From: a virus | Taxonomy: Duplodnaviria; Caudoviricetes | Virus record (IMG/VR): IMGVR_UViG_3300007961_000135 | Location: 11,287 to 75,286 of that record | Length of the DNA: 64,000 nucleotides | Direction: 5' to 3' (one strand) | In this document: piece by piece, positions 47,401 through 64,000 of the stretch | How the letters are laid out: every line of letters begins with the position of its first letter | Position numbering within the stretch: position 1 is the first letter of the stretch | Position numbers and translations under genes: made by a program | Notes under the pieces: generated by a model | What the model was told of the DNA's origin: nothing | The model's input: only the letters and a program-made list of their open reading frames with translations | Database searches by the model: none

Positions 47401-48398
47401 TCGGTGATGTGCAGACAAAGCAGCAGGAGGCCGCTGACTCCGTCGCCGATTGGCAGGTGGACTTTTACTCTAAGCTGGATGATCTCAGTGATAAGTTCGA
47501 TGAAGTAGTGGAAGGCCTTGACCTCTCTGATGAAGCGGAAGCGGCCGCGAGCGATACCTTCCAGGCGTATATAGACGAGATCGAGAGGAAGGGCGATTCG
47601 GCGGTGGCCGCAGCACAGCGCGTAGCGGACAGAGTGTCGGCGGCGCTGTCCAGCGCCAGCGGCAACATAAGTGTCAATCTGAATGCGCCGGCTCCCGGCC
47701 ACGCCAAAGGCACCGACTATGCCGAGAACGTCTTTGTCGCCGGCGAGGAAGGCCCGGAACTCATACGCAGAGCGGCAGGCTCTTACTCCAAGCCGGAATA
47801 CTTCTTTGCCGGCCTGAACGGGCCTGAGCTCATCGTCGGAGAGCAGGGCGCGAAGGTCTATACCAACGAGGAAACGAAAAACCTCATAGGCAACGCTGCG
47901 GGGGCAAGCCCCTTGTCTCAGGTGGGCGACATCAGCTACGGCGACACTATCACCACGAGCTATGACCGGACCTATGATACAGACTACTTCTACGACATGG
48001 GTCGGCAGTCGGAGGTGTTGTCCGAGCGCGCCGAGCCGGAAGTCATGCCCGACAGCGGGAACAAGACCATCATTTCTTTCGCCCCGGACTTTATGGAAAG
48101 GATCGGCGGAAAGACCCGGATTTATGACACCGAGGACACGGAGGCAGCGCCTTTCAGGACTGTCGGAGAGCCTGACGACTATCGGGAGGGACAGCCTTCC
48201 GGCGGTCTTCGCGGAGGCAGCTCGGAAGATACCCGGCATATCTATCTCGACATCACCGGCAGCGGCGCCATCAAGGTCAGCGCCGGTATGGACAGAGAAA
48301 CGGTGCTGGAGCTCCTGCAAGAGAACCTTAAGCCCGTGCTTGCGGGTATCATCCAGGAGGAGATCTTCGAGGAGGGGGATTTGAGCTATGATTACTAA
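44451..48398 (+). CDS. Tape measure protein
   Basis: 1315 aa, Ala-rich, TP901-type core, central hydrophobic segments. Confidence 0.9.
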
Positions 48399-49050
48399 TT
48401 ATCAGATGTGGATGACCGCCAACGGCTCCACCGTCAAGCTCCAATTCCCCGTTCATCCTGATAAGATCGAGGTCCGCAGGAACGGCAACAACGACACCGT
48501 AAACCTCACCGGGATAGGCGAGGTGACGATCATCCAGAAGCCCGCAGCGGACAGAGTGACATGGAAATGCTTTTTTCCCGCGGCGTCATTTCCTGGCGTA
48601 AAGGGGAGCCTGCAGGAGCCTATGAGCTACGTTAAGCAGCTCAACGCCTGGAAGAACAGCGAAGAGCCGGTCTATTTTGTCTCGACGGCCTGCGGTATCT
48701 GCGACTACTACACCATAGAGGGTTTCACCTACTCCGAGGAAGGCGGCGACGTCGGTACTATCCAGTATTCGATAGAGCTGAAGCGTTACACGGAGCTTGG
48801 AGCCCGGACCGTAACGGTAAGCCTCGATGAGCAGCGGGCCACCGTCCCAAAGCAGAACGACAGCCCCAGGGTGGACAACACGGAGACGCCGCAGACCTAC
48901 ACCGTTAAAAGCGGAGACAACCTGTACAAGATCGCCAAGACCCTCTACGGCGACGGCTCCCTGTGGACCAAGATATATGACGCAAACAGGGACAAGATTT
49001 CAAACCCCAATCTAATATACCCGGGGCAGATATTTACGATTCCAAGCTAA
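48388..49050 (+). CDS. LysM-domain baseplate/tube initiator (XkdP-like)
   Basis: C-terminal [14 protein letters not shown]...NPNLIYPGQ LysM. Confidence 0.9.
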
Positions 49051-49054
49051 GGGG

Positions 49055-50266
49055 GTGGGTGAAATAGCAAAGTATCAGCTTTTGCTGTTCAAATCCGGCT
49101 CCTCCGGGACCGACATCACGAATCTCTGCCAGCAGATAAAGTGGAAGGGGCGAAAGGGCAGCGCGGCGCGAAGCGTAGCAGCGAAGCTCATAGACGACGA
49201 CGGCGCCAAGCATTACCGCTCCGGCATTACCGTTGAGGACGGTCACCAGGTCGTTTTCCTTGTGGACGGCGACGAGGTTTTCCGAGGCATTGTCATGTCC
49301 ACCGGGCAGACCGGTAAAAAGCTGATGACCGTGACTGCCTACGACAACGGGATATACCTCGCCAACAACAAGGACACCTTTTGCTACGAAAACAAGACTG
49401 CCGACGAGGTCTTCCGGGATGTTATGTCCCGTTTCGGTCTGCCCGTCGGCACGGTGGCTTCCTGCTCTTACGTCATCCCGGAGCTGACAAAGAGTAAAAC
49501 TTCTGCCTTTGACGCCATAGCCGACGCGCTGAACCTCGATTACAAAAACGCACAGGTCAGGCATTACATAGCCAGCTCAAAGGGGAAGATAAGCCTGCTC
49601 ACCCGGAGGGAAAATATCCTGCAATGGGTGATCGAGCCTACCTCCAACCTCATAGATTACAGTCTGAGCAAAAGCATTGAGAAGACCAGAACCCGTATAA
49701 AGCTGGTTTCCAACGAGGGCACCGTTCTGGCGGAGGCCTCCGACACGGCGCTGGAGGAAAAGATCGGCATGTTCCAAGACATAGAACAGCCGGATGAAAC
49801 GCTTACACAGGCGCAGCTTACGGCGCTGGCCAAGTCGATATGCGCCGAAAAAGCCGTTGTGGAAAACACGCTTACCCTCGACGCCCTGGGTATAAAGGAA
49901 GTAATCTCCGGCGTGGGTGTTTTTGTCAACATCCCGCACCTGGGACTCTCCCGCACTTTCTATGTGGACGAGGACACTCACGTCTTCGAGGGCAACAAGC
50001 ACACCATGAACCTAAAGCTGAACGTAGCCAGCGACGTGGGAGCTGGTACCGGAACGCAAGTCCAGAGCGGCGGTAAAAGGTATGTGGTAGTTGCCAAATC
50101 CGGCCTGCACATCAGAAGCGGTGCCGGAACAGACTGCGCCTCCCTCGGCGTTCTGCCCTACGGTACATCATTCTCCGGAGATGGGCAGGAAAGCGACGGC
50201 TGGATACACGGCACGGCCAACGGGCTTACAGGGTGGTCATACGGCGGCTATCTGAGCGAAGCATAG
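49055..50266 (+). CDS. Baseplate hub (XkdQ-like) with C-terminal SH3b domain
   Basis: Synteny; C-terminal LHIRSGAGT...GWSYGGYL. Confidence 0.8.
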   Translation: MGEIAKYQLLLFKSGSSGTDITNLCQQIKWKGRKGSAARSVAAKLIDDDGAKHYRSGITVEDGHQVVFLVDGDEVFRGIVMSTGQTGKKLMTVTAYDNGIYLANNKDTFCYENKTADEVFRDVMSRFGLPVGTVASCSYVIPELTKSKTSAFDAIADALNLDYKNAQVRHYIASSKGKISLLTRRENILQWVIEPTSNLIDYSLSKSIEKTRTRIKLVSNEGTVLAEASDTALEEKIGMFQDIEQPDETLTQAQLTALAKSICAEKAVVENTLTLDALGIKEVISGVGVFVNIPHLGLSRTFYVDEDTHVFEGNKHTMNLKLNVASDVGAGTGTQVQSGGKRYVVVAKSGLHIRSGAGTDCASLGVLPYGTSFSGDGQESDGWIHGTANGLTGWSYGGYLSEA

Positions 50267-50280
50267 GAAGGAGGCAGCGG

Positions 50281-50640
50281 ATGAATACGGACGAAGCTCT
50301 CAGTTTGAAAGGACTTTTCCAGGGCATAATACCACCGGCCTGTGCGCTGGTGCAGGGGACGGTAATCTCTATCACCCCTCTGAAAATCCAAATCAAAAAC
50401 GACGAGAAGCTGATAATCGGCGCCGCGGCTACGGTAATACCCAAGCACCTGACGGATCACACCGTTACGGTGACGATACCGAGCTCCGGCGCTCACTCTC
50501 AGTACACCGGCAACGGTTTACACAGCCATACGGAGGTAACTATGACGGTATATAACGGACTGCGGAAAGGGGACGAGCTTCACCTGCTGGCGGTGCAGAA
50601 CGGCAAAAAGTATTTCGCCCTCGGCCGCGTTGCAGGATAG
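50281..50640 (+). CDS. Baseplate spike-like protein (XkdR/DUF2577)
   Basis: GTVISITPLKI, LRKGDELHLL. Confidence 0.75.
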   Translation: MNTDEALSLKGLFQGIIPPACALVQGTVISITPLKIQIKNDEKLIIGAAATVIPKHLTDHTVTVTIPSSGAHSQYTGNGLHSHTEVTMTVYNGLRKGDELHLLAVQNGKKYFALGRVAG

Positions 50641-51059
50641 TGGCCGCCGTGAATTTCCTGGAGTTGCCTGTAGAAACGTTTGAGGAGGCCAAGGAGGCAC
50701 CGTCCCTGACCTATAAACTCGACCTGAACACGGGCAGAATCGTCGGCAAAATCGACGGCAAAGAAGCGGTCCGGCAGGCAATACGAAAAGCAATAATAAC
50801 ACCGCGCTGGAAGTGCCTCATATACAGCAATCAGTACGGAAGCGAGATAGAGCGGTCGTATATAGCCGGAAACGCCTCCCTGGACTTTATCAGGGCTACC
50901 ATAGAGGCGTATATAAAAGACGCCCTCTTGCCGGACACGCGGATCCTCCGCTGTTATGATTTTGACGTGACTCAGGAGGACAACAGCGTGTATATTTCCT
51001 TCAAATGCGATACGGTCTTCGGGGAAATCTCAATGAAAGAGGTGATAGAGGGTGTTTGA
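50640..51059 (+). CDS. Baseplate wedge protein (XkdS/DUF2634)
   Basis: EAVRQAIRKAIITPR...YGSE. Confidence 0.8.
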   Translation: MAAVNFLELPVETFEEAKEAPSLTYKLDLNTGRIVGKIDGKEAVRQAIRKAIITPRWKCLIYSNQYGSEIERSYIAGNASLDFIRATIEAYIKDALLPDTRILRCYDFDVTQEDNSVYISFKCDTVFGEISMKEVIEGV

Positions 51060-52164
51060 AAAATATACTTACGAGTACCTTCTGGACAAATACCTGGCTT
51101 TGGCGCCAAGCGGAATAGACACCCGTGAGGGCAGCATATTCTTCGACTCCGTTTCTGGATGTGCGCTTCGCATGGCAAAGCTCTACACCGATCTCGATCT
51201 TGTGTTCTTCCTCTCCCAGCTCGCCACCACCGTCGGCGAACACCTGGACATCAAGGCGGGTGAGTATGGCCTTTTCCGTCATGCCGCAACACCTGTTCAG
51301 TATTATTTCTCGTACACCGGAAACATGCCCGACACGGGCGAACGATTCTTCTATGACGGCGTTTACTTCGTACTGAAGGAGGACAGCAACAACAATCTTT
51401 ACCTCGAATGCGAGGAAGCGGGCGCCAGTCACAATTTCATAGCTTCCGGCACGCCGGTCGTGCCGGTAAACAACATCGACGGTCTGACGTCCGCCTCTAT
51501 TGGTGCCGTTTATGAATACGGCACCGACGAGGAAACAGACGAGGCTTTAAGGTCGAGAGTGCAGGCTAAGCTCTCCGGCCCCGCTGAGAACGGGAACAAG
51601 CAACACTACAAGGTCTGGTGCGAGGAAGTGGACGGAGTGGGTATCGCAAGGATACTGTCGCTGTGGAACGGTCCGAACACCGTCAAGGGTGTCCTTATAA
51701 ACTCCGAGGGACTCCCCTGCGGCAACACTATCGTCGCGGCCGTCCAGGAGCATGTTGACCCGGCCAAGCTTGGCTACACGACCACCGTGGACGGCGTGAC
51801 CTACGTTGTGGGCGACGGCCTCGGTGAAGGGCGGGCAAATGTAGGCGCTCACTTTACAGCTGTGGCAGCGAAGAGCGTCACGATCAACGTCGCGGCCTCC
51901 GTGGAGCTTGCCTCCGGATATGACGTTCAGACAGCCACGGATGACGCCGAGGCCGCATTGCAAAAGTATTTTAAGGAACTGGTACTCCAGACGGACAGCG
52001 CGAACGATCTCATAGTACGGCTCTCTGCCGTTGGCGTCATTCTCGCGGGCCTGGCGGATATTCTGGACTACTCCAGCCTCACCATTAACGGAGGAACGGC
52101 GAATATCACGCCCGGGGTGGACGGAGTGCCGGTGCTGGGTGAGGTGACGCTTAATGCTGTTTAA
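51052..52164 (+). CDS. Baseplate J protein (XkdT-like)
   Basis: IDTREGSIFFD, ETDEALRSR, GNKQHYKVW. Confidence 0.9.
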   Translation: MFEKYTYEYLLDKYLALAPSGIDTREGSIFFDSVSGCALRMAKLYTDLDLVFFLSQLATTVGEHLDIKAGEYGLFRHAATPVQYYFSYTGNMPDTGERFFYDGVYFVLKEDSNNNLYLECEEAGASHNFIASGTPVVPVNNIDGLTSASIGAVYEYGTDEETDEALRSRVQAKLSGPAENGNKQHYKVWCEEVDGVGIARILSLWNGPNTVKGVLINSEGLPCGNTIVAAVQEHVDPAKLGYTTTVDGVTYVVGDGLGEGRANVGAHFTAVAAKSVTINVAASVELASGYDVQTATDDAEAALQKYFKELVLQTDSANDLIVRLSAVGVILAGLADILDYSSLTINGGTANITPGVDGVPVLGEVTLNAV

Positions 52165-52879
52165 CTACCCCTATGCAAGCAACTTCGACGAGCTGATAAC
52201 CTATTATCCGAAATACTACTATGACGTAGTGGAAATGATAGCGCTCCTCAAGGCCCAGGGTGCAGCTCTGGACGAATTCATGGAAAACGCCGAGAAGGTT
52301 TTCAACAACTGCTTCATCGACACCATGGACGAGGAGGCTGTCGGCACGCTCGAAGACTTCCTTGATATCCACCTCTACAAACAAAGGACACTTGAGGAGC
52401 GGAAAAGGCTCCTCAAAACTTTCTTTGTAGGCCATGGACGGCTGTCTGCCGAAATGATCAAGCAGACCGTTTCGGCCTATACCGGCAGTGACGTTGAAGT
52501 GTATCTTCTGCCGATAAACCGAACACCGGGAGCGACAGAGTATGAGCCGGGCGACAACCGGCTCCACATCAACTATCTGCGCGGCGAGGAAGAGATCTTA
52601 TACCTCAACGACGTCGATACGCTGCTTTCCAGGCTCATTCCCGCACATCTGGATTACAGGAGCGCACTCACCTACCGCTACGGCGTGACAACATCGCCGA
52701 AAAGAAAGAAATACATAAAGGACTTCGAGCCCGCGGGCACGATTCCGGAAACCTCAACCCTCGGCCTTTCCGCCGGGGGTGATGTTGTAGTTGACGCAGA
52801 CAGCGGCCTCGCGAACAGGACGACCGTATGCGTGACTTATAAATTCTGCGGCACGGACGTATGCCGCGACACTATCTGA
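52154..52879 (+). CDS. Baseplate protein (XkdU/YmfQ, DUF2313-like)
   Basis: LITYYPKYY, FIDTMDEE, LIPAHL. Confidence 0.75.
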   Translation: MLFNYPYASNFDELITYYPKYYYDVVEMIALLKAQGAALDEFMENAEKVFNNCFIDTMDEEAVGTLEDFLDIHLYKQRTLEERKRLLKTFFVGHGRLSAEMIKQTVSAYTGSDVEVYLLPINRTPGATEYEPGDNRLHINYLRGEEEILYLNDVDTLLSRLIPAHLDYRSALTYRYGVTTSPKRKKYIKDFEPAGTIPETSTLGLSAGGDVVVDADSGLANRTTVCVTYKFCGTDVCRDTI

Positions 52880-52895
52880 CAAGGAGGAAAACGCG

Positions 52896-53994
52896 ATGTT
52901 GACTGACGCCTTTCTCAACCGCACCCGGACGAGGTGGATGCGTTGGCTTACCGACTTCCGGTATTGCCTGAACGGGACCTGGTACACGGCGGAAATCACC
53001 GACAAGGAGATCGACGGTGACAAACTGCGTATTACCACCATGACCACGGACGAGGTTGCGGGTACGGTGACGGCCGTGCGTATCTACGACAACAACGGAA
53101 CGCTTGCTCTGTCGGCCACGGAGAACATCACCAAGAAGGCCACCCAGGGCATTCTCACCGTGTGGGAATTTCCGCTGTACGAAGTTTAGGGAGGAGGTGA
53201 ACCAGAGCCATGTATAACCAGACCTATTGGAAAGACCATGTCGTTGACGGTGAGGGCCATGTAATACAGCAGGGCACGAACATGGACGCGCAGAACTTCA
53301 ACAACATGGAAGACGGCATTCAGGACGCCCATGTGGCGGAACAAATCCTTCTGCAGCACAAGCTTCAGAAGGAGCGTGAGCTTGACGCAGGACTGGCCGA
53401 GATCGAGAACGAGATTGCGGCCGAGTACGGCACCAAGACCCTCACAAATACCGATTCATATCCTTTCAACAACTCTGCCGCGACCGTTGCGCTGGCAAAG
53501 ACGCGCGACACCATCAACTACACCGTGGAGGCTATCATCACCGCATACAGCGGCGGCCTGCCGGGGGCTATCCACGTCACCGACAAGGCCATAAACGGCT
53601 TCAAGCTGTCCTTTGACGGCAGCGCCAAATCTGTGACCGTAAGATACATCGTAAAAGGAGGTTTCATGTCATGATCGTAATCGAGAAAAACGAGGGTACT
53701 AAGATCCCCTATGAAGTGGACGGTACCAAAATCACCTTCGACGATGAGCTGACGCTTAAACTGCAGAAGCTCCAGAAGGACGAGCCGGTACATAAGGACA
53801 TCTGCTACGACAGCGACCTTGACCTGTGCATCGGCACCAAGGAGGGCAAATACTACGTCGCCGAGATCGACATACCGGCGATCGAGTATGAGGAAGTCGA
53901 GGAGGGCGGCGAGACCCACCGCGAGCCTCTGCCCCTCAATATGGACGACGTCACGCTCACCCTGTGGAGCATTGACGACAAGACCAAGATTTAA
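52896..53994 (+). other. Three tail-tip/fibre-region genes (52896-53189, 53210-53674, 53671-53994)
   Basis: RBS-supported ORFs between the baseplate and the DGR target. Confidence 0.65.
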
Positions 53995-54005
53995 GGAGGA
54001 TTATC

Positions 54006-55100
54006 ATGGGAAACTTCGATCTTTCCGCTCTGGCACTCAAGGCCGTATGCCCCGGCAACGACCTTCTCTATGACGACAAGGGCCTGCCCTCCGTCATGGT
54101 CTATGTTCCCAAGTTCAAGATTTCTGACGTCATCACCGGCGGCAGCAACAGCGTACACCCGGCTTTCATCATCAACGGCACCGAGGTTGACGGTATCTGG
54201 ATTTCCAAGTACCAGAACATCGTCAAGGGCGGCAGAGCCTACAGCCTGCCGTGCGAAGACCCGGGCACAAACATAACGTTTGACAGCGCCCGCCAGGCTT
54301 GCGAGGCCAAAGGCGAAGGCTGGCACCTGATGACGCTGGCTGAGTTTAAAGCGATTGCTCTCTGGTGCAAAAAGCACGGTATCGCGCCGAAGGGCAACAA
54401 CAACTACGGCAAGGATTCCGAAGACAGCACCTACGACGGTATCCCGACGACCTACGGCACCGGTGCCGACGCCGGTAAAATCTTCCATATCGCTACCGGC
54501 TCCGGCCCCATAAGCTACTCCCACGACGGCACCCTTTCCGGTATATGGGATCTGAACGGCAACGTGACCGAATGGCAGGGCGGCGCCCGTCTTGTTCACG
54601 GAGAGCTGCAGATCCTCGCCAACAACAACGCTGCCGACGCCGACAACTCCCAGGCCGCGAACTCCGCGCAGTGGAAAGCTATCGACGGCACGGACGGTTC
54701 CCTTATCACACCGAATGGCTTCGGCACCACCACAAACAGCCTCAAGCTGGACTATGTGAGCAGCGCATGGAAGTGGATAACCGGCACTATAAGCAGCAGC
54801 GCCGACAGCTCCAGAAACTGCGCATTCGCCAGCGTCACCGCAGACAACACTGTCTGCGCGGCGGCACAGGAGCTCCTTTACACCCTCGGCCTGCTGCCCG
54901 ACAGCTCCACCGCCACCGATTACCACGGTGACGCCCTCTACGCCAACAACGCGGCAGAGGAGCGCCTTTTCAGCGCCGGTGGCCACTACAGCAACGGTGC
55001 CAGCGCGGGCGTGTTCTACCTCGGCGGCAGCAACACTCGCTCGTACTCCGACGGCCACGTTGGTTTCCGCGCCGCTTTTGTAAATCTGCCCTCTGCTTAA
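54006..55100 (+). CDS. DGR target protein, CLec (FGE-sulfatase-like) fold, probable receptor-binding protein
   Basis: WISKYQN, FDSARQAC, WHLMTLAE, DLNGNVTEW, terminal GFRAA; 3' end matches the TR. Confidence 0.9.
   Translation: MGNFDLSALALKAVCPGNDLLYDDKGLPSVMVYVPKFKISDVITGGSNSVHPAFIINGTEVDGIWISKYQNIVKGGRAYSLPCEDPGTNITFDSARQACEAKGEGWHLMTLAEFKAIALWCKKHGIAPKGNNNYGKDSEDSTYDGIPTTYGTGADAGKIFHIATGSGPISYSHDGTLSGIWDLNGNVTEWQGGARLVHGELQILANNNAADADNSQAANSAQWKAIDGTDGSLITPNGFGTTTNSLKLDYVSSAWKWITGTISSSADSSRNCAFASVTADNTVCAAAQELLYTLGLLPDSSTATDYHGDALYANNAAEERLFSAGGHYSNGASAGVFYLGGSNTRSYSDGHVGFRAAFVNLPSA
54962..55078 (+). repeat. DGR variable region (VR)
   Basis: 117 bp; 106/117 identical to 55638-55754; all 11 mismatches lie opposite TR adenines. 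Confidence 0.97.
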
Positions 55101-55108
55101 TGTGTACT

Positions 55109-55157
55109 GTTGCCCCGCGATAGCGGGGCAACGTCTCCTTACCGCGCGCAGCGCGGT
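55109..55157. promoter_or_regulatory. DGR target-recognition hairpins downstream of the VR/IMH
   Basis: GTTGCCCCGC-GATA-GCGGGGCAAC (10-bp stem, GRNA loop) and ACCGCGC-GCA-GCGCGGT. Confidence 0.75.
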
Positions 55158-55173
55158 CCGCGCAAAATTTATG

Positions 55174-55195
55174 AAATAACGGATTACGTTATTTT
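55174..55195. promoter_or_regulatory. Palindromic operator-like site upstream of avd
   Basis: AAATAACG-GATTA-CGTTATTT; 20/21 match to 62608-62628 on the reverse strand. Confidence 0.6.
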
Positions 55196-55268
55196 ATAAC
55201 GAAATACACTGTCCCGCCCCCTGCCTGGAGTATAATCAAAACACTTTCCGAGGGAGCGGGGCAGCAAA

Positions 55269-55619
55269 ATGGCAGAGGATTTGAAACTCCAACAGAAGAT
55301 CTACGACATGATGTTGTACGCCTGGCCAGTGCTGGCTCAATTCCCGAAATCCGAGAAGTTCACCCTCGCCGCCGACATCAAGAGGAATATGGACGTCCTC
55401 ATGGAGCGGTGTATCGAGGCGAAAAAGAAGTATTACAAGAAAACCACCCTGCACGACATGGACGTGACCAACGAGAAGATACAGGTTTATGTCCGTCTCG
55501 CCTTCGACCTCAAATACATAAACAGCCACAAGTATAGCGTATGGTCAGGGAAGCTGGTGGAAATCGGAAAGATGTTAGGTGGATGGATCAAGGCCGTCAG
55601 CGGTCCGAAAGCCACTTAA
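55269..55619 (+). CDS. avd: DGR accessory variability determinant (four-helix bundle)
   Basis: LAQFPKSEKFTLAADIK...EIGKMLGGWIK; located between target and TR. Confidence 0.92.
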   Translation: MAEDLKLQQKIYDMMLYAWPVLAQFPKSEKFTLAADIKRNMDVLMERCIEAKKKYYKKTTLHDMDVTNEKIQVYVRLAFDLKYINSHKYSVWSGKLVEIGKMLGGWIKAVSGPKAT

Positions 55620-55637
55620 TATAGGGAACTGACCGCC

Positions 55638-55754
55638 GCGCCTTTTCAACGCCGGTGGCAACTACAACAACGGTGCCAACGCGGGCGTGTTCTACCTCAA
55701 CGGCAACAACACTCGCTCGAACTCCAACGGCAACATTGGTTTCCGCGCCGCTTT
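55638..55754 (+). ncRNA. DGR template repeat (TR)
   Basis: Intergenic between avd and RT; 11 AAC codons in the VR frame; followed by a hairpin-rich spacer (CAGAGCC-TACG-GGCTCTG). Confidence 0.95.
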
Positions 55755-55933
55755 ACCGTCAAGCCAGATACCCAGAGCCTACGGGCTCTGCCTCAGTGCA
55801 GCGGTGATAAAGGGGTCTGTTCCCTCAGTCATGTTTATGGCAGAAAAATGATATGCCGCATATACCGGCGTTCCGGCTGCTTCCCCAGCGCGGCACGGCG
55901 CCTGTAAGGTGCGGCCTTCGGGGGTACGACGAA

Positions 55934-57010
55934 ATGGAAAAGCACTCTCATGTGTTTGAGCAATTCGCAACCTTTGACAACATGTATGACGGCTACCTCC
56001 TTGCGCGCCGCCAGAAACGGTACAAGGCGGCAGTGCTGGACTATTCAGTCCGCCTCGAAGAAAACATCATCGACAGCGTAAACCGGCTCCAGTGGAAGGA
56101 GTACAGGCCAGGGAGGCTCTTTCCGTTCTACGAATACTTCCCCAAGCTGCGCCTTATCCATTCGCTCCCTTTCCCCGACCGCGTAATAAACTGCGCGGCC
56201 TATAAGGTGCTTTGGCCGATTTACAGCCAGAGCTTTTACGAGCACAGCTACGGGAGCATACCGGGCAAGGGCACGCTGTCCGCCGTCCAGCAGCTCCAGC
56301 GCTGGATGAAGCGGGTGAAGCGCAAGGGCTGGTATGCCGGCAAGCTGGACATCGCCAAATTCTTCTTCAGGATACCGGTTGATGTGCAGCTCCGGGAGCT
56401 GGGACGCCCTTTGGACGATGCGGATATGATGTGGTTCCTGGAAACGGCCATAAGGTGCGACGGGCGGCCCTTTGGACTCCCGCTCCATTGCACCGACGTC
56501 ACCACGGCCGAGCGCATAGCCGGCATCGGAATGCAGGTGGGATCTCTCATATCTCAAATGACGGCAAATGTCGTGCTCACTCCCCTCGATCATTACATCA
56601 AGAGGGAACTGCGGGTACCATACTATATTCGGTATATGGATGACATGATTATCCTCTGCCCGTCCAGAGAGCAGACATGGGATGTAATAACGGCCGTCGA
56701 TGATTATCTGCGTGAGGAGCTCGGCTTACAGCTCAACAACAAAACGGCTGTTATGACTGTCGGTGAGCGGGTGGAGTTTGTCGGGCGCAAAGTCACGCCG
56801 GACAGGATCGAGCTGCGGAAAAGCACGTCTCTCCAGATGAAGCGCCACCTCTCCTGGGTGATGGAGCACTATTCCACTGGGGAGCTGCCGCTTGAATACT
56901 GTCAGCAGGTCATGGACTCGTATTTAGGGCTGATGAAGCATGCTGACTGTGACGAGCTGCGGAGCAAGGTCTTGGACGATTTCGTTCTCGTCCGGCACAG
57001 CAGAAGTTAG
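55934..57010 (+). CDS. DGR reverse transcriptase
   Basis: FPDRVIN, SYGSIPGKG, KLDIAKFF, GMQVGSLISQ, YIRYMDD, VEFVG; no intron maturase or endonuclease domains; start reassigned to ATG 55934. Confidence 0.95.
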   Translation: MEKHSHVFEQFATFDNMYDGYLLARRQKRYKAAVLDYSVRLEENIIDSVNRLQWKEYRPGRLFPFYEYFPKLRLIHSLPFPDRVINCAAYKVLWPIYSQSFYEHSYGSIPGKGTLSAVQQLQRWMKRVKRKGWYAGKLDIAKFFFRIPVDVQLRELGRPLDDADMMWFLETAIRCDGRPFGLPLHCTDVTTAERIAGIGMQVGSLISQMTANVVLTPLDHYIKRELRVPYYIRYMDDMIILCPSREQTWDVITAVDDYLREELGLQLNNKTAVMTVGERVEFVGRKVTPDRIELRKSTSLQMKRHLSWVMEHYSTGELPLEYCQQVMDSYLGLMKHADCDELRSKVLDDFVLVRHSRS

Positions 57011-57058
57011 TATGTAGGTTTACATACCGAAAATGATGTAATGATATCATTCCCGTGG

Positions 57059-57088
57059 GGAGCTGCGAAAGCGGCTCCTTAATTTTTT
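57059..57088 (+). terminator. Intrinsic terminator after the RT
   Basis: GGAGCTGC-GAAA-GCGGCTCC followed by a T-rich tract. Confidence 0.7.
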
Positions 57089-57106
57089 ATGTGAAAGGAA
57101 ACTGTT

Positions 57107-57592
57107 ATGAATGAAAAGTTGATTGCCGCGAAAATTGGCATAAGCGTAATCGCAGCGGCTTTGACAGATTTTTTGGGCTGGAAGGGAGTGCTGATGTTAG
57201 TCCTTGCCTTTCTTATGGCTATTGACTACATTTCCGGGACACTTGCCGCCAAAAAGAACGGCACGTGGTCGAGCACCATTGCGCGGCAGGGGTTATTTCA
57301 TAAGGGAGGCACTATTATCATGGTGCTTGTGGCGCTCTTTATGGACGTTATTTTCACAGTAGCGTTTCCGCATATCCCGGTTATAGGCGGTGGCATTGAA
57401 AACCCCGGAATATTCCTGCCGCTCGTTTCCGTGTGGTATATCATTACGGAAATGGGCTCAATTATGGAAAACTCCGCCAAAATGGGCGCGAAGGTACCAA
57501 AGTGGTTCCAAAAGGCCGTTGAAAAAGTCGGTGAATCCATAGATAGAACCGGCGAAGCACAGACGAAGGAGGAAGAGCATGACGACACCTGA
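57107..57592 (+). CDS. Holin (Phage_holin_4_1 type)
   Basis: TM segments, IDYISG, SSTIARQGLFHK, EMGSIMEN. Confidence 0.9.
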   Translation: MNEKLIAAKIGISVIAAALTDFLGWKGVLMLVLAFLMAIDYISGTLAAKKNGTWSSTIARQGLFHKGGTIIMVLVALFMDVIFTVAFPHIPVIGGGIENPGIFLPLVSVWYIITEMGSIMENSAKMGAKVPKWFQKAVEKVGESIDRTGEAQTKEEEHDDT

Positions 57593-58352
57593 TAAACTCA
57601 TAAATGTCGCCTTGGGCGAGGTGGGGTATTTGGAAAAAGCCTCAAACGCCCAGCTGGAGGGAAAGACCTCCAACGTAGGCAAAGCAAACTACACGAAATA
57701 CGGCGCATGGTACGGCATAAACCCCGGTGCCTGGTGTGCTATGTTCGTTTCCTGGTGCGCAATGAAAGCGGGAGCCAGCGATATAATCCCGAAATTCGCT
57801 TCATGCTCTCTTGGCATTGCCGCTTTTAAGAAGCTCGGAAGGTGGCACACCAGGAGCGGATACGAGCCGAAGAGGGGAGACATTATCTTCTTTGGCGATA
57901 AAAACGGAGCGCCCCAGCACACGGGCATTGTCTATAAGGTGTCCGCTGCAAGGGTCTATACCATTGAGGGCAACAGCGCCAACGGTGATAAGGTTATTCC
58001 AAACGGCGGCGCCGTCGTTTTGAAGGATTACACACGGGACGACCCCAGCATACTCGGATATGTTAACCCCGATTGGCCGGAAGAGAAGACGGAAGTTGAC
58101 AAAACGGACAATAAGTCAACTGAGGAGCCCGAAAAGTCAACTCTCGGCGAAGATAAGTCAACTAAAGAGTTGCGTTTCAACCGCATATCCGAAATGCCGG
58201 AGTGGGCGAGAAATGACATGATGTCTCTCTGCGACAAAGGCATACTCAAAGGAAACGGCGGCGAAAAGGACGGCAATGGCCGACCCGCCGACCTGGATTT
58301 GAGCCTCGATATGATAAGAGTGCTGGTGATGTGTAAGCGCATGCACCAGTAA
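57579..58352 (+). CDS. Endolysin, CHAP domain
   Basis: WCAMFVSWC, HTGIV, IEGNS. Confidence 0.9.
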   Translation: MTTPDKLINVALGEVGYLEKASNAQLEGKTSNVGKANYTKYGAWYGINPGAWCAMFVSWCAMKAGASDIIPKFASCSLGIAAFKKLGRWHTRSGYEPKRGDIIFFGDKNGAPQHTGIVYKVSAARVYTIEGNSANGDKVIPNGGAVVLKDYTRDDPSILGYVNPDWPEEKTEVDKTDNKSTEEPEKSTLGEDKSTKELRFNRISEMPEWARNDMMSLCDKGILKGNGGEKDGNGRPADLDLSLDMIRVLVMCKRMHQ

Positions 58353-58355
58353 ATG

Positions 58356-58410
58356 AAAGCACCCCCTTGACAGGATATTTCTCCTGTTGAGGGGGTGCTT
58401 TTTTGTTTTT
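58356..58410. terminator. Bidirectional terminator between the lysis genes and the right-arm operon
   Basis: AAAGCACCCCC...GGGGGTGCTTTTTT long stem. Confidence 0.8.
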
Positions 58411-58542
58411 ATACACCAGAGTGTAAAACGGGCGGTTTATTCGGCCTCTGAGGGCCGCCTTTGTCCGGTCATGTTTCCGTATTCTCGCTCCCGGAAACGC
58501 CGAGGAGCGCCGCGAGGTGAGACGCAGCGGGCCTTTGCGCTC

Positions 58543-61500
58543 CTATTCGTGCGTAGCCTTGAAATTCTCAATCGCCCACTTGTTCCCCGTGGCCGCGACC
58601 GCCGCTTTTGTGCGCTCATATGGCGTAGCGGGAGGCAATACCTCCTCGCGCTGGTCCTCGATCAGAATGTCGTGGATGACGTACTGCTTGTTACCGTCTG
58701 CAGTCTTGTAGTACATGGGCGTGACGGCCACCAACGGGCCGGGCTTGCCCTCAACATATGCCTGAGCCGCTTCCAGGGTGCTGTACCCCACCTGGGATAT
58801 GTGGCCGGCGGGGTGATTCCCGCCAGCCGGCAGATATTCTATGAACTCGATGATATAGGCTTTCATGCTGTCTCCTTCCTTAAAAGCTGATTGCCATACT
58901 CCATTCGTTCAAAGGGAGCGGATTTCCGACCATGTCCCGGATCGCCTCGTCCATGCCGCATTCATCACAGACATAGACGTGGGCGTGCCGGCTCAGGGCG
59001 TTGCGGACCAGTTTCTCGTTCATGCGGTCATAGCCGCAACGGGGACAAGGAAACTTTTCGCCCCGCTCCTGCAGCGGCATAAGGCCCTCAATAAGGAGCT
59101 TGGCTTCTTCGACTGTTTTCATTTGTTATCCTCCTCTAATCTCTTAAATCCAAAGCTGTCACAGAACCAGGTGGACTTTGTCGGTGGGTCTGTGCTGTTA
59201 TCCCAAAGGTTGACTATGTCGCTGACGCTCATGCTGCGGCCGGTGTAGCCCTCTGGTCTTTTGTCAGTATTGTAGGCGCTGAACAGGTGCTCACAAGCTG
59301 TAATCTCATCTGGTGCCTCCACTACACCGCTGTCGGCGGTGTAATAGCGGTCAAGATCAACGCCCCCGAAAAGTTCAATAGTGCGTTCATAACACTCAAA
59401 GAGGCGATAAACATTTTCGGCCGGCACGTCCCGGATCTGGTCGAAGGTGTAGGTGTATTTCATCGGCTGTTCCTTTCTCCAGGTCTATTGCCCGGCCGGG
59501 AGGGCTTATTATCACAACTCAAAAAGTGCGGCAACTCCGATTTCTGCGCATTTTTTCGTGATATGCTCCATCTCAGCAATCATCACATCCAGCGAGCAGA
59601 TGCAGCCGCCATCGGCAATTTCCTTGAATCTGCTGCGAATGTCGTGCGGCACAATTCTGCACATGTCGTGCGATATGACGATGATCGTGAATTTAACTGT
59701 TTCCATGCTATGTCCTTTCTGCCCTCGTGACCTCCGGGGCGTGTATCTTGTCAATCGTCCAACAACGGGGCGTCGTCGATGATTTTGCGGATGGTCTCTA
59801 TCTCTTGCTCCATATCGGCCCAGAACCGGGCGTTTCCAGGGGCGTTCTTGAAGCTCGGCGTTCCATCCGGTTCCGTTTCATTGGCAAGCCGTTCCCAGGT
59901 CTCGCGCTCACCCTTGCGGAAGTTGGTAGTCATCAACAGGAAGCTCGTCAGCGTGACGGCCTGCTCATGGGTGAGTGTGATCGTCTTTATCATGGTGGCC
60001 TCCTTATTCAATGGCAGATTCAATGTTGCTTATGGCCTCTTCCAGATTGCTTACGGCCTCGTCCATGTTGTCACAGGCTTCCTCGGCCTTCTCGTACCGC
60101 TCTGAGGTCTGGAGGTTTTCGGGCATGGCGTCGCGGTATTCCTCCTCCTCCTCTTTAAGCTCCTCAAGGCTGGATTTCAGCTCCTCCAGCTGGTCGATGA
60201 TCTCCTGCAAGCTCTTTCTGCGGATTCTGTTCATGTAATGTCCTTTCTCCCCGTCGTGCCGGTAGGCCAGCTTCAAAGGATTTAATCCAGCATGCTTGGG
60301 TCAACTGCGGTGGTTTCGGTAAACTCGGCTTTTTTGTCTATCAGCAGCGCGCAGTTATAATCTACATCCACAACCTTATAGGTCTTTCCCTCATAGCTTA
60401 CGGTCTTTCCAATCCACTGTTTTTTCATCCACCGGACGTGTTCCCTGTAGGTCATCACGTTTCCTTTCTGCCCTCGTGACCTCCGGGGCGGGATTTCGTT
60501 TTACTGCGCCAGCCTGAATACATTGTAGAGGAAATCGCCCTCTTCATTGTGAATGCTCTCGACAACCGTGAGTTTTTCAAGAGCCTGGCTCATCGGGCCA
60601 CCATAGATGCCCAGTTCCCAGAGGCCAGCAGCCTGGGCCTTTTTCCAGAAGCAATTAACCTCGATCCCGGCTGACGGCTTTCCTGCGAAAAGGTGATGCT
60701 TGGTTCCAAAAGCGGCCCGGATGAAGTTCTCGCACCATTCAACCTTTACCTGTTTCATTCTGCGCCTCCTTAGTGTAGGTCAAAGACCTGTCCGCGAGCT
60801 TTAATGGTGTATTTGACATACCTCTTGCCGGTTCGGCTCTCGATGTGGTGCTTCGTGACTCTCTCGATCTCTGAGAGGCGGACGCTCTTGCAGCGGGGTT
60901 GACGGCGAATAAAGGGAAGAACAATCTCTTTGGCGGCCTCATTGAGCGGACGCCCTTCAGGCTCCCACCTGTTGCGGTATCTGTCCCACCGCTTATCCTG
61001 CTGGGCGACAGCTTCCTCCTTGGTTCCGTACCACTTGGAGTATCTGCCGTTTCGGTATCCGATCTGGTAAAACTCTTCCCGGTAGAGTTCTTCAAGGCTA
61101 TCGTTCCAAATCGTATCTCCGTATGTGTTGTCGCTGTTTGGAAAAAACCTTCCGGTTGCTTTACCGACCGTCAGTGCTACCAGATCGAAGTCGTAAAAGC
61201 GGGTCTCTTTTCCCTCTCCGGTGTGCTCATGGGCACTCTCGGGGCCCAGCAGAATGCGGATGAGGTCTTTACCGTCGGTCAGGTCAATCTTTGCAATCTC
61301 GCCCTGGTGTCCGCTCATCGTCGCGGTGTTGATTGTGTACCCCTTTCCGATCCACTCGGAAACGACCTCGGTGAACTTGCGGTTTATAGTCTCGAACTTC
61401 ATGGTGTTCCTCCTTATTTGTCTTCCCGGCGGTCAAGCTCGGTCATCATTTCATGGTTTTCGGCGATCAGCTTACGCTTCAGATTGATGTTTGTGGTCTT

Positions 61501-61991: not shown

Positions 61992-62201
61992 GTGAACATC
62001 ACAATGAAGATTAAAATGGCTGAAACATATGCCCAAATTAAAGAGGCTGAATTGGCGCGGAGGCTTGGAACTTCCTCGCAGGCACTCGGCCAGCGCATTA
62101 AGACGGGTAAGTTTACAGCTGCAGAATTGGAGAATATTGCGGCTGCGCTCGGCTGCGAGTTCATTTGTAAATTTCGCTTCCCTGACGGTACAGAAATCTA
62201 A
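61992..62201 (+). CDS. Small XRE-type HTH regulator
   Basis: AELARRLGTSSQALGQRIKTGKFTAAELENIAAALGCEF. Confidence 0.85.
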   Translation: MNITMKIKMAETYAQIKEAELARRLGTSSQALGQRIKTGKFTAAELENIAAALGCEFICKFRFPDGTEI

Positions 62202-62292: not shown

Positions 62293-62544
62293 CTATCTCT
62301 TTTGCTTATCCGTGCCAGCACGGTTTTTTGTTTGAACATCCCCGTTAGGCACTCGAACAATGATGTCTGTCGGCTCACAGTCGAGAGCTTCACAAATTAA
62401 GTCGAGGTGTTCAAGGTTGATTCGCTCGGCAATCTCGTGGTACATGTCGTTGATTGTCGATGCTCTTATGCCGGTGGCGCGGGCGAGATCGGCCTGCGTC
62501 CAACGCAGCTCGCCAAGCTTGCGGGACAGTAAAATCCTTATCAT
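62293..62544 (-). CDS. Cro/C1-type (HTH_26-like) regulator next to attR
   Basis: WTQADLARATGIRASTINDMY...LDLICEALDCEPTDII. Confidence 0.9.
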   Translation of the reverse strand: MIRILLSRKLGELRWTQADLARATGIRASTINDMYHEIAERINLEHLDLICEALDCEPTDIIVRVPNGDVQTKNRAGTDKQKR

Positions 62545-62607
62545 AGCCTTTTGCTCCTTTACGGTAAATTCTACCGATTATTGTAGATACCCGCAGGAGT
62601 TTGGTAG

Positions 62608-62628
62608 AAAATAACGTAATTCGTTATT
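62608..62628. promoter_or_regulatory. Palindromic operator-like site upstream of the HTH gene
   Basis: AATAACG-TAATT-CGTTATT; near-identical to the site upstream of avd. Confidence 0.6.
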
Positions 62629-62636
62629 AAAAATAA

Positions 62637-62748: not shown

Positions 62749-62795
62749 GTTCGTTTTAGTCAACTTTGGTGGAGCAAGATGCACCAAAGTCGAAC
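62749..62795. other. attR of the prophage / attL of the neighbouring element (core 62764-62772)
   Basis: Same 47-bp architecture and CTTTGGTGG core as 4460-4506. Confidence 0.8.
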
Positions 62796-64000
62796 ACCTC
62801 GCCGGAGGCCTCCGCGAGGCCTTCGACGAATGGCAGGTCGACCGTCTCCGCTCCGTTCTTCGTGTAATTGTAGACGATCCGGATCCGGTCGTCGTACAGA
62901 TAGACGGCGTTCACGAAGTTCTCGATCACCTTCCATTGAAACGCCGGATCCGTGACGTCACCGCCCCGGAACCTCTCGAGCCAGTAGATCACCTGCTCCT
63001 TCGAGAGGGCCGGCGTCTCGAAGCGAATCCGCTCGATCTGGTCCTGAAGCTGCCGGCGCTGCTCCTCGAGCTCCTCGAGCCTCGCCTTCGTCGTCTCCGT
63101 GATGATCCCTTGCTCGATCGCGGTCATGACGTTCCGGATGGAGCGCTCGACGTCGCCGAGCTGCTTCTGCAGGAGGGGACCCTCTCCGGCCTCAGCCTCA
63201 GCACGCTGCAGATCCACGACGGCGTCGGCGATCCTCTCGATCACAGAGTCGACGAGGACCCGCTGCACAGTCTCCCGGACGACGAGCTCCTCGATCCAGT
63301 CCTTCTTCACCGGCTTCTTCTCACAGTCCCGGCGGCGCTTCCGGCCGACGCAGGTGTAGTAGTTATGCTTCGCCCCTGTTTTGGAGGTCCCGGACTCTCC
63401 GACCATGGCGGACCCGCAGCGGCCGCAGAACAGCCGGCCGGTCAGCAGATAGTCGACGCGGGACCACGACGCGGCGGGGGCCTTCGCGTTCTTCGCGATG
63501 ATCTCCTGAGCCATATCGAACGTCTCCCTCGTTATGATGGCGGGGATCCCGCCCTCGATCCTGACGTCGCCGTACTTATACACGCCGACGTACCTCTCAT
63601 TCCGGAGAACGGTCCGGAGCGAGTTCTTGTTAAACTTGACGCCGCGGGAGGTCCTCAGGCCCCGGGCGTTCAGATCCGCGCAGATCTCCGTCGGGCTCAT
63701 GCCGTCGATATACATGGCGAAGATCTCCCGGACGAGGGCGGCGCCGGCGGGCTCGATCGCGTACCGGCCGTCCGGACCTTTGCAGAGGCCGAGCGGCAGC
63801 CGGCCGTTATTGACCTTGCACTCGAGCGCGTTCGCGTGCATCCCTCGCTTTATGTTCTGGGCCAAGTTCGCCGAGTAGTACTCCGCGGAGCCTTCGAGGA
63901 CGCTCTCGAGCAGGATCCCTTCCGGGCCCTCTGGGATGGACTCCTTCGCGTACATGACCCGGACGCCGTACTTCTTCAGCCGCGCTTTATACATGGCCGA
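62756..64000 (-). CDS. Second large serine recombinase (5' end outside the window), belonging to an adjacent GC-richer element
   Basis: Recombinase domain, CGRCGSAM zinc ribbon, coiled coil; homologous to 4415-6037 but with markedly more GC-rich codon usage. Confidence 0.9.
   Translation of the reverse strand, partial: SAMYKARLKKYGVRVMYAKESIPEGPEGILLESVLEGSAEYYSANLAQNIKRGMHANALECKVNNGRLPLGLCKGPDGRYAIEPAGAALVREIFAMYIDGMSPTEICADLNARGLRTSRGVKFNKNSLRTVLRNERYVGVYKYGDVRIEGGIPAIITRETFDMAQEIIAKNAKAPAASWSRVDYLLTGRLFCGRCGSAMVGESGTSKTGAKHNYYTCVGRKRRRDCEKKPVKKDWIEELVVRETVQRVLVDSVIERIADAVVDLQRAEAEAGEGPLLQKQLGDVERSIRNVMTAIEQGIITETTKARLEELEEQRRQLQDQIERIRFETPALSKEQVIYWLERFRGGDVTDPAFQWKVIENFVNAVYLYDDRIRIVYNYTKNGAETVDLPFVEGLAEASGEVFDFGASCSTKVD

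Follow-up and report, generated by a model that had tools for sequence, protein, structure and literature searches.

The two described diversity-generating retroelements (DGRs) that lie closest to the one reported here are those of the Bordetella phage BPP-1 and of a Thermus aquaticus prophage. In BPP-1 (mtd-avd-TR-brt) sequence is transferred from a template repeat (TR) to a variable repeat (VR) with changes specific to adenines, and the elements of its ribonucleoprotein (RNP) have been described by authors who predicted that they would be conserved in the DGRs of Bacillota (bioRxiv 10.1101/2023.10.23.563531). The Thermus element carries its variable protein, the accessory variability determinant (avd), the TR and the reverse transcriptase (RT) in that same order as here, and the variable protein, TaqVP (PDB 5VF4), is a monomeric, single-domain C-type lectin (CLec) of the FGE (formylglycine-generating enzyme) subtype (PMC6328139). 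Here we analyse a 64,000-nt stretch of a tailed phage genome (Caudoviricetes; IMG/VR record IMGVR_UViG_3300007961_000135, positions 11,287 to 75,286), which we call the window and to whose positions all coordinates refer, and we conclude that it very probably holds a complete Bordetella-phage-type DGR in a temperate phage with a contractile tail, whose hosts are gut or rumen Clostridia. An initial annotation of this DNA had read the order of the element as target (with the VR), hairpins, avd, TR and RT, and that order is correct. Its main components are these:

54006 to 55100, + strand: DGR target gene, 364 aa, a single-domain CLec protein (FGE subtype) of TaqVP type, with variable residues at aa 323 to 352
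54962 to 55078, + strand: VR, 117 bp, with 11 differences from the TR, each at a TR adenine
55269 to 55619, + strand: avd, 116 aa, accessory variability determinant (PF22296, NF033474, phrog_3206)
55638 to 55754, + strand: TR, 117 bp, with 26 adenines
55934 to 57010, + strand: DGR RT, 358 aa from a conserved ATG, with VGSLISQ and YMDD motifs; the longest open reading frame (ORF) begins at 55853

TR/VR differences at adenines only, Avd, an RT like that of the Bordetella phage (bRT), a CLec target with a C-terminal VR, a hairpin with a GRNA loop and a structured RNA are all found together at this locus. The DGR itself is ordinary, one more member of a very large and well-described class of phage CLec DGRs that is enriched in gut viromes, and its value lies in being a clean and fully annotated example of the TaqVP lineage. 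The novel part is a conserved pair made up of a small helix-turn-helix (HTH) protein and a palindrome, the rest of the element being canonical. What switches DGR mutagenesis on is largely unknown, and a pair that recurs with DGRs in dozens of phages offers a testable candidate for the switch; if this is true, DGR activity in these phages would be turned on or off by one small regulator and would not follow the late operon.

The repeat pair had been reported in the initial annotation as two 117-bp copies with 11 differences, all of them TR adenines, and a repeat search combined with a script reproduced this. The alignment is ungapped at 91% identity, its 11 mismatches comprise eight A to G, two A to C and one A to T, and for 11 random differences to hit none but the 26 A among 117 positions the probability is 8.9e-9. 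With the A positions masked the repeats are identical at 91 of 91 positions, and not a single base of further homology is present on either side. The earlier claim that the element appears to have been active in the past is therefore well founded: adenine mutagenesis has clearly altered the VR at some time, 11 of 11 differences being on TR adenines. In the frame of the target (ORF 54006 to 55100) the 26 adenines occupy 11 AAC, two TAC, one ACT and one ATT codons, which amounts to 15^11 x 4^4 = 2.2e15 variants with no stop codon possible, and our recount here agrees with the figures first given (about 2e15). The proposed check for further VRs was run on the whole 75,286-bp record with the masked TR; it contains one VR only, because the next best site has 45 mismatches. 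VR and TR have in common the GC-rich end GGTTTCCGCGCCGCTTT, directly after which they diverge, and this end looks as would be expected for the pair of initiation of mutagenic homing sites (IMH/IMH*) that sets the direction of transfer.

The target is a homologue of TaqVP over its full length. It matches 5VF4 at E 2e-45 with about 31% identity, and its AlphaFold model, made with 43 relatives in the alignment, has a pLDDT of 94.7 and a TM of 0.88 to the same structure; these matches and the C-terminal position of the VR uphold the CLec fold, which had been put forward as a refutable prediction. The model gives weaker structure matches to FGEs, TvpA and Mtd, the last at a Foldseek E of 4e-3 to 1e-2 and a TM of about 0.32. 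A tropism determinant of the Mtd type was considered and rejected, since all 364 aa align to the monomeric TaqVP and the Mtd match is weak, and the locus differs from BPP-1 in that its target is without the beta-prism or beta-sandwich trimerising domains of Mtd (best Foldseek E 4e-3). By family the target belongs with phrog_2889 (E 6e-125), a PHROG without assigned function, and it also matches a tail-protein PHROG weakly (phrog_5302, E 3e-16). Overall, the Thermus aquaticus DGR and the present one share their gene order, a full-length homologous target, a single-domain CLec of the FGE subtype and a VR at the extreme C-terminus. They differ in that the host there is Thermus and here mesophilic gut or rumen Clostridia, and in that the target here ends the baseplate module of a contractile tail, behind two conserved small genes.

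Between the target and avd lie two small hairpins:

55109 to 55132, + strand: hairpin/cruciform of the target-recognition type, GTTGCCCCGC-GATA-GCGGGGCAAC, with a 10-bp GC-rich stem and a 4-nt loop of GRNA type
55141 to 55157, + strand: second small GC hairpin, 7 bp with a 3-nt loop and no U-tract; role unassigned

The first of these begins 30 nt past the end of the TR/VR homology, and as DNA the stretch made up of both hairpins and the palindrome at 55174-55194 folds more stably than all 200 shuffles (z -4.3). Sections of PMC3240598 describe the DGR hairpin/cruciform as a GC stem of 7 to 10 bp with a GRNA loop, 4 to 34 bp from the VR, and BPP-1 likewise has a GC hairpin with a G..A tetraloop after its VR. 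Most of 105 A-biased TR/VR pairs in related loci have a GC-rich stem of 6 to 14 bp located 30 to 90 nt after the VR; these stems differ in sequence and covary, and their loops are mostly G..A tetraloops (GATA 30, GCAA 11, GGTA 5, GAAA 5). Judged by sequence and position, the hairpin at 55109 to 55132 is the published target-recognition hairpin/cruciform. Sections of that study, on Clostridia prophages (Eubacterium rectale, Desulfotomaculum; Guo et al. 2011, PMC3240598), and of a study of gut-virome DGRs (PMC8008677) also share with our locus the phage-borne setting, CLec targets beside tail genes, hairpins with GRNA loops and an enrichment in gut viruses; the same sections differ from it in giving no description of an HTH/palindrome pair or of the conserved 154-aa and 107-aa genes considered below.

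The two proteins that would act on these sites are both well defined. Avd scores 114 bits against a cut-off of 80 for the NCBIfam equivalog NF033474 (DivGenRetAVD) and matches PF22296 (bAvd, E 1e-29) and phrog_3206; against PDB sequences it had no match at E 0.01. The RT is an RVT_1 protein (phrog_1423 at E 2e-101); numbered along the long ORF, VGSLISQ occupies aa 228-234 and YMDD lies at aa 261, in keeping with the [I/V/L]GxxxSQ and YxDD motifs of the DGR clade. The closest solved RT is 8ub7 ('Reverse transcriptase', 328 aa, nine entries; E 1.5e-28), which from its length, motifs and nine entries we take to be the Bordetella phage bRT, and whose IGSLTSQ aligns with the VGSLISQ of the window. 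Retron-type RTs (E 4e-15) and group II RTs (E 1e-14) lie far behind 8ub7, and the NCBIfam group II score of 90 is far under its cut-off of 300. The likeness to BPP-1 thus extends over A-specific transfer from TR to VR, Avd and a homologous RT with YMDD, the second motif being IGSLTSQ there and VGSLISQ here. The RT most likely starts at the ATG at 55934 and not at the longest-ORF ATG at 55853, because a conserved ATGGAAAAGCAC with a G-rich Shine-Dalgarno before it aligns to 55934 in 20 of 22 relatives, because the region upstream varies in length among relatives and not by multiples of three, and because the 8ub7 alignment begins only at residue 29 of the long ORF.

The history of the cassette may be distinct from that of the gene it acts upon. 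The closest relative, locus L003, has a target 72% identical, a baseplate 71% identical and 154-aa and 107-aa proteins 85-90% identical to those of the window, and despite the similar target its Avd and RT are only 48% and 34% identical. RT identity and target identity show no correlation over 96 loci (r = -0.08), which suggests an exchange of avd-TR-RT cassettes among phages in which the target gene took no part.

A structured RNA around the TR is supported by covariation. For 22 relatives, with RTs 58-78% identical to that of the window, we aligned the 3' end of the TR and the sequence that follows it, and mapped the following elements:

55623 to 55634, + strand: 5' strand of a duplex bracketing the TR, AGGGAACTGACC, directly behind the avd stop; partner strand at 55814-55825; similar to cPRT-Stop
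55755 to 55933, + strand: spacer (Sp) of the DGR RNA, about 179 nt
55773 to 55790, + strand: stem-loop in the spacer, CAGAGCC-TACG-GGCTCTG, 7 bp; resembles the Avd-binding element
55802 to 55805 (CGGT) and 55809 to 55812 (AAAG), + strand: primer strand in the spacer; pairs with ACCG at 55755-55758 and CTTT at 55751-55754
55814 to 55825, + strand: 3' duplex strand in the spacer, GGTCTGTTCCCT, partner of AGGGAACTGACC
55844 to 55848, + strand: A-run in the spacer
55856 to 55914, + strand: long interrupted stem in the spacer; resembles the RT-binding element

Four helices have covariation support, namely the stem-loop at 55773-55790, with double changes in five of seven pairs; the pairing of the TR end with the spacer, in which the CTTT bound by the spacer AAAG forms the last bases of the TR; a 2-bp helix that holds a fully covarying Y-R pair; and the long stem, with compensatory changes in nine of ten pairs. 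Of the cells in the alignment 92% pair, a share that falls to 33-57% once partners are shifted by 1-3 columns; double changes occur in 61-63 cells, and none of 500 shuffles reached the observed values. The TR-bracketing duplex of 10-12 bp is present in all 22 relatives with different sequences. A GGGG/CCCC hairpin at 55812-55824, proposed by RNAalifold, was set aside in its favour. Energy folding of 55620-55940 gave a structure not more stable than shuffles (z -0.23), and the evidence for structure is the covariation; the RNA is without an Rfam model here, because a search of the whole window at the gathering threshold returned no family.

These alignments support the existence of the helices around the TR. 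Along the RNA the stem-loop comes first, and after it follow the primer strand, the 3' duplex strand, a small hairpin with the A-run, and the long stem. BPP-1 has the same order of a stem-loop after the TR, pairing of the spacer with the TR 3' end, a TR-bracketing duplex and a long stem, and differs in its spacer, which here is about 179 nt. We infer from this likeness which published BPP-1 RNP function each helix would have. With every cis element mapped to the base (hairpin, duplex around the TR, priming duplex, both stem-loops), the locus supports the published claim that the reverse-transcription mechanism of BPP-1 is conserved in Bacillota DGRs.

By homology to BPP-1, the general pathway of diversification can be proposed. 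A transcript running over the end of avd, the TR and the spacer would fold into a defined RNA comprising the TR-bracketing duplex, a stem-loop just 3' of the TR, a helix between the spacer and the TR 3' end, and the long stem. Avd and the RT would bind this DGR RNA, and the RT would prime on the RNA itself, copying the TR into cDNA and misreading adenines only. The cDNA would then take the place of the VR in the 3' end of the target gene, with the GC-rich 3' end that VR and TR share and the GATA-loop hairpin 30 nt downstream as guides. The TaqVP-type protein would thereby gain a new binding surface at its C-terminus (aa 323-352), drawn from up to about 2e15 variants with no stops. The HTH protein, in this scheme, would act on the palindromes before the avd-TR-RT unit and before its own gene, and so set the expression of the DGR.

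The sites and the gene on which this last step depends are the following:

55174 to 55194, unstranded: palindrome and candidate operator of the DGR promoter, AAATAACG-GATTA-CGTTATTT, AT-rich
55231 to 55236, + strand: -10-like hexamer TATAAT, downstream of the palindrome
62293 to 62544, - strand: Cro/C1-type HTH protein of 83 aa (PF13443), candidate regulator of the DGR promoter
62609 to 62629, unstranded: second copy of the palindrome, the sole other in the record, 65 nt upstream of the HTH start codon

The palindrome consensus is AAATAACG-N5-CGTTATT (17-21 bp, with the core ATAACG-N5-CGTTAT), and the 75-kb record holds two copies where 0.03 are expected. The copy at the DGR stands 75 nt before avd, with its centre 47 nt upstream of TATAAT, and the other precedes a gene, about 7 kb from the DGR promoter region, whose product is a match to HTH_26 (PF13443; E 5e-18; 65.5 bits, cut-off 22). 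In related loci the palindrome, symmetric variants included, is found in the gap between VR and avd in 38 of 115. Four of five genomes tested encode an HTH homologue of 71-78% identity 5-6.5 kb beyond the DGR palindrome, with the palindrome core lying 83-86 nt ahead of the start codon in all four. Starting instead from the HTH protein, which has 277 relatives in IMG/VR, a palindrome lies at -60 to -100 of the start in 63 of the 74 loci with enough upstream sequence, and in the 35 loci with at least 9 kb downstream we find an RT in 33, an A-biased TR/VR pair in 29 and a second palindrome before a TR-RT unit in 29. Many of these HTH-linked loci belong to another DGR clade, whose RTs are 25-28% identical and whose elements run VR-palindrome-TR-RT; avd is absent between its VR and TR, and the palindrome stands about 90 nt before the TR. 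A near-consensus -10-like hexamer follows the palindrome in both clades, about 36-38 nt past its end where counted; no conserved -35 was seen in either clade. Variant sites also go together: one phage (L008) has ..CGTGAT, an asymmetric variant, at both of its palindrome sites, another (L045) has an ATTAC.. half-site at both, and residue 29 of the HTH protein is S, T or A by operator type, on small numbers.

On balance, we lean slightly towards a model wherein the 83-aa HTH protein binds both palindromes and sets DGR expression. Since the centre of the site falls about 47 nt upstream of the -10-like hexamer and not over it, activation is as possible as repression. Rather more tentatively, the HTH protein and its palindrome may constitute a dedicated transcription switch for DGR mutagenesis in many phages of gut Clostridia, across two clades whose RTs are about 25% identical. 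A known parallel is offered by autoregulated Cro/CI repressors of the XRE family, which likewise combine a small HTH_26 protein with an inverted repeat, placed both in the promoter region of that protein's own gene and at a second promoter. The present pair differs from them in having just two sites in the whole phage, the second before a retroelement operon, and in the placing of the site upstream of the hexamer. The palindromic candidate operator and linked HTH gene also set the locus apart from BPP-1, for which, to our knowledge, no counterpart of the pair has been described. A literature search for a described DGR regulator found none, which is not proof that none exists. In the HTH promoters themselves (62545-62608 in the window, and loci L174 to L181) there is a further inverted repeat, TTCTAACA ... 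TGTTAGAA, downstream of the palindrome and overlapping a -10-like TAGAAT, which may be a second operator or a hairpin.

Relatives of the target number 264 in IMG/VR and 101 in GTDB genomes, almost all of the latter being prophages from gut or rumen Clostridia (Oscillospiraceae, Lachnospiraceae, Ruminococcus, Gemmiger, Faecalibacterium). In related loci 1306 of 1333 TR/VR mismatches are at TR adenines. The family is demonstrably active in nature, because there are 15 groups of loci with an identical TR and most of these have VRs that differ from one another solely at TR adenines, for example L008/L010/L013, L092/L034 and L052/L053. For the phage of the window, past activity and intact machinery are what can be read from its DNA. 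In two related loci, a Gemmiger prophage (L052) and an IMG/VR contig (L099), a second VR at 368-481, about 4.5 kb upstream of the main target, matches the same TR with A-biased differences, so that one DGR appears to serve two targets there.

The genomic context places the element in a contractile-tailed phage, with genes for sheath, tube, chaperone, tape measure and baseplate (among the last, baseplate J and a Mu gp48-like gene) and three small ORFs, followed by the target, avd-TR-RT, a holin and a CHAP lysin. Two of the neighbours upstream of the target are conserved with it:

53210 to 53674, + strand: short-fibre-like protein, 154 aa (phrog_9010), with N-terminal strands, a long helix at aa 27-69 and a C-terminal beta-sandwich
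53671 to 53994, + strand: protein of 107 aa, function unassigned (phrog_8734), with its start overlapping the stop of the preceding 154-aa gene

Among 160 related loci the 154-aa gene lies upstream of the target in 118 and the 107-aa gene directly upstream of it in 123. Pfam and NCBIfam gave no match to the three small ORFs upstream of the target. The model of the 154-aa protein (pLDDT 79) shows N-terminal strands, a 43-residue helix and a beta-sandwich. Foldseek likens the sandwich to H-type lectins and to knobs found on phage tailspikes, R-pyocin fibres and AP22 gp53, in matches whose probability is about 1.0 but whose E-values are only 2e-3 to 0.2; the ESM Atlas leads from the 154-aa protein to Gp53-like_C and H_lectin clusters. 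The initial annotation had placed the target after baseplate and fibre genes, and of this the baseplate stands, while no long fibre gene is present, only the three small ORFs, one of them short-fibre-like. A position after a short-fibre-like gene fits a tail role of the target without proving one, and it is from gene position that we infer its place at the tail tip. Because the target is the last gene of the baseplate and short-fibre module, we regard a role in varying the receptor-binding specificity of the phage as probable.

Several observations weigh against parts of this account, and three other explanations need to be considered beside it. The target has no Pfam or NCBIfam match, TaqVP is monomeric, and any attachment to a tail would have to be made without the N-terminal trimerising domains of Mtd. 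It could instead be a soluble or cell-associated binding protein, made for example by the prophage, and not a receptor-binding or host-range protein of the virion. The single-domain, TaqVP-type architecture, the want of a fibre-attachment domain or tail-fibre Pfam match, membership of a PHROG without assigned function, and the non-structural phage DGR targets on record in sections of PMC8008677 all speak for such a protein. We nonetheless find this doubtful, in view of a target gene that is co-oriented with the baseplate and short-fibre-like genes, directly after them and ahead of the lysis genes, of a trio of 154-aa, 107-aa and target genes kept in most of the 160 loci, and of the weak match to a tail-protein PHROG. 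The cassette might also be a relic, the VR having been diversified in the past and retrohoming since lost in the phage of the window. We have a single snapshot of its VR, the nearest relative reaches only 72% target identity, and the collections hold no twin or near-identical sister genome; a megablast of 50000-60000 against the phage GenBank collection gave no match. At the same time, the avd and RT frames are open and the catalytic YMDD is present, the hairpin and RNA helices are intact, the perfect match at non-A positions is not that of a decaying element, which would gather non-A differences, and sister lineages show ongoing variation. A relic is accordingly very unlikely, and a DGR with intact machinery is the reading we retain.

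The regulatory model has to contend with more. Of 115 related DGRs, 77 are without the palindrome, which is therefore not a general DGR feature; shared phage ancestry could partly explain the co-occurrence of HTH gene and DGR; and a consensus scan of 55050-55900 found no full sigma-70 promoter and no intrinsic terminator. A palindrome would moreover be conserved as a hairpin too, and the repeat at 55174-55194 might be a structural DNA or RNA hairpin of the DGR, or serve termination, and not be an operator for the HTH protein. Its arms stay complementary in the symmetric variants, as those of a hairpin would, and two other hairpins stand directly before it where the target gene ends. Yet the same palindrome recurs 60-100 nt before 63 of 74 HTH genes, far from any VR, and the asymmetric ..CGTGAT variant at both sites of one phage breaks the pairing; the stem is AT-rich with no terminator-type T-run after it, and in relatives a -10-like hexamer follows. 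A purely structural hairpin is thus unlikely, and the operator remains the explanation we prefer for the palindrome.

Other features of the window and of the related loci bear on the phage more than on its retroelement. Close relatives of the target occur in bins labelled Candidatus Nanoarchaeia (L110) and in a metagenome-assembled genome labelled Paracoccus (L137), which may be binning errors or misassigned phage contigs. No tRNA genes were found. After the tape measure, a 220-aa protein (48388-49050, + strand) matches endolysin/LysM-like PHROGs (phrog_380, E 3e-66) and is probably a lysin associated with the tail, distinct from the holin and the CHAP lysin that follow the DGR. Converging on the 83-aa HTH gene is a second small HTH protein of 69 aa (61992-62201, + strand) with a weak HTH_26/DUF6471 match, and near both HTH genes lies a serine recombinase (62756-63994, - strand); the two HTH genes and the recombinase probably make up the lysogeny end of the prophage.

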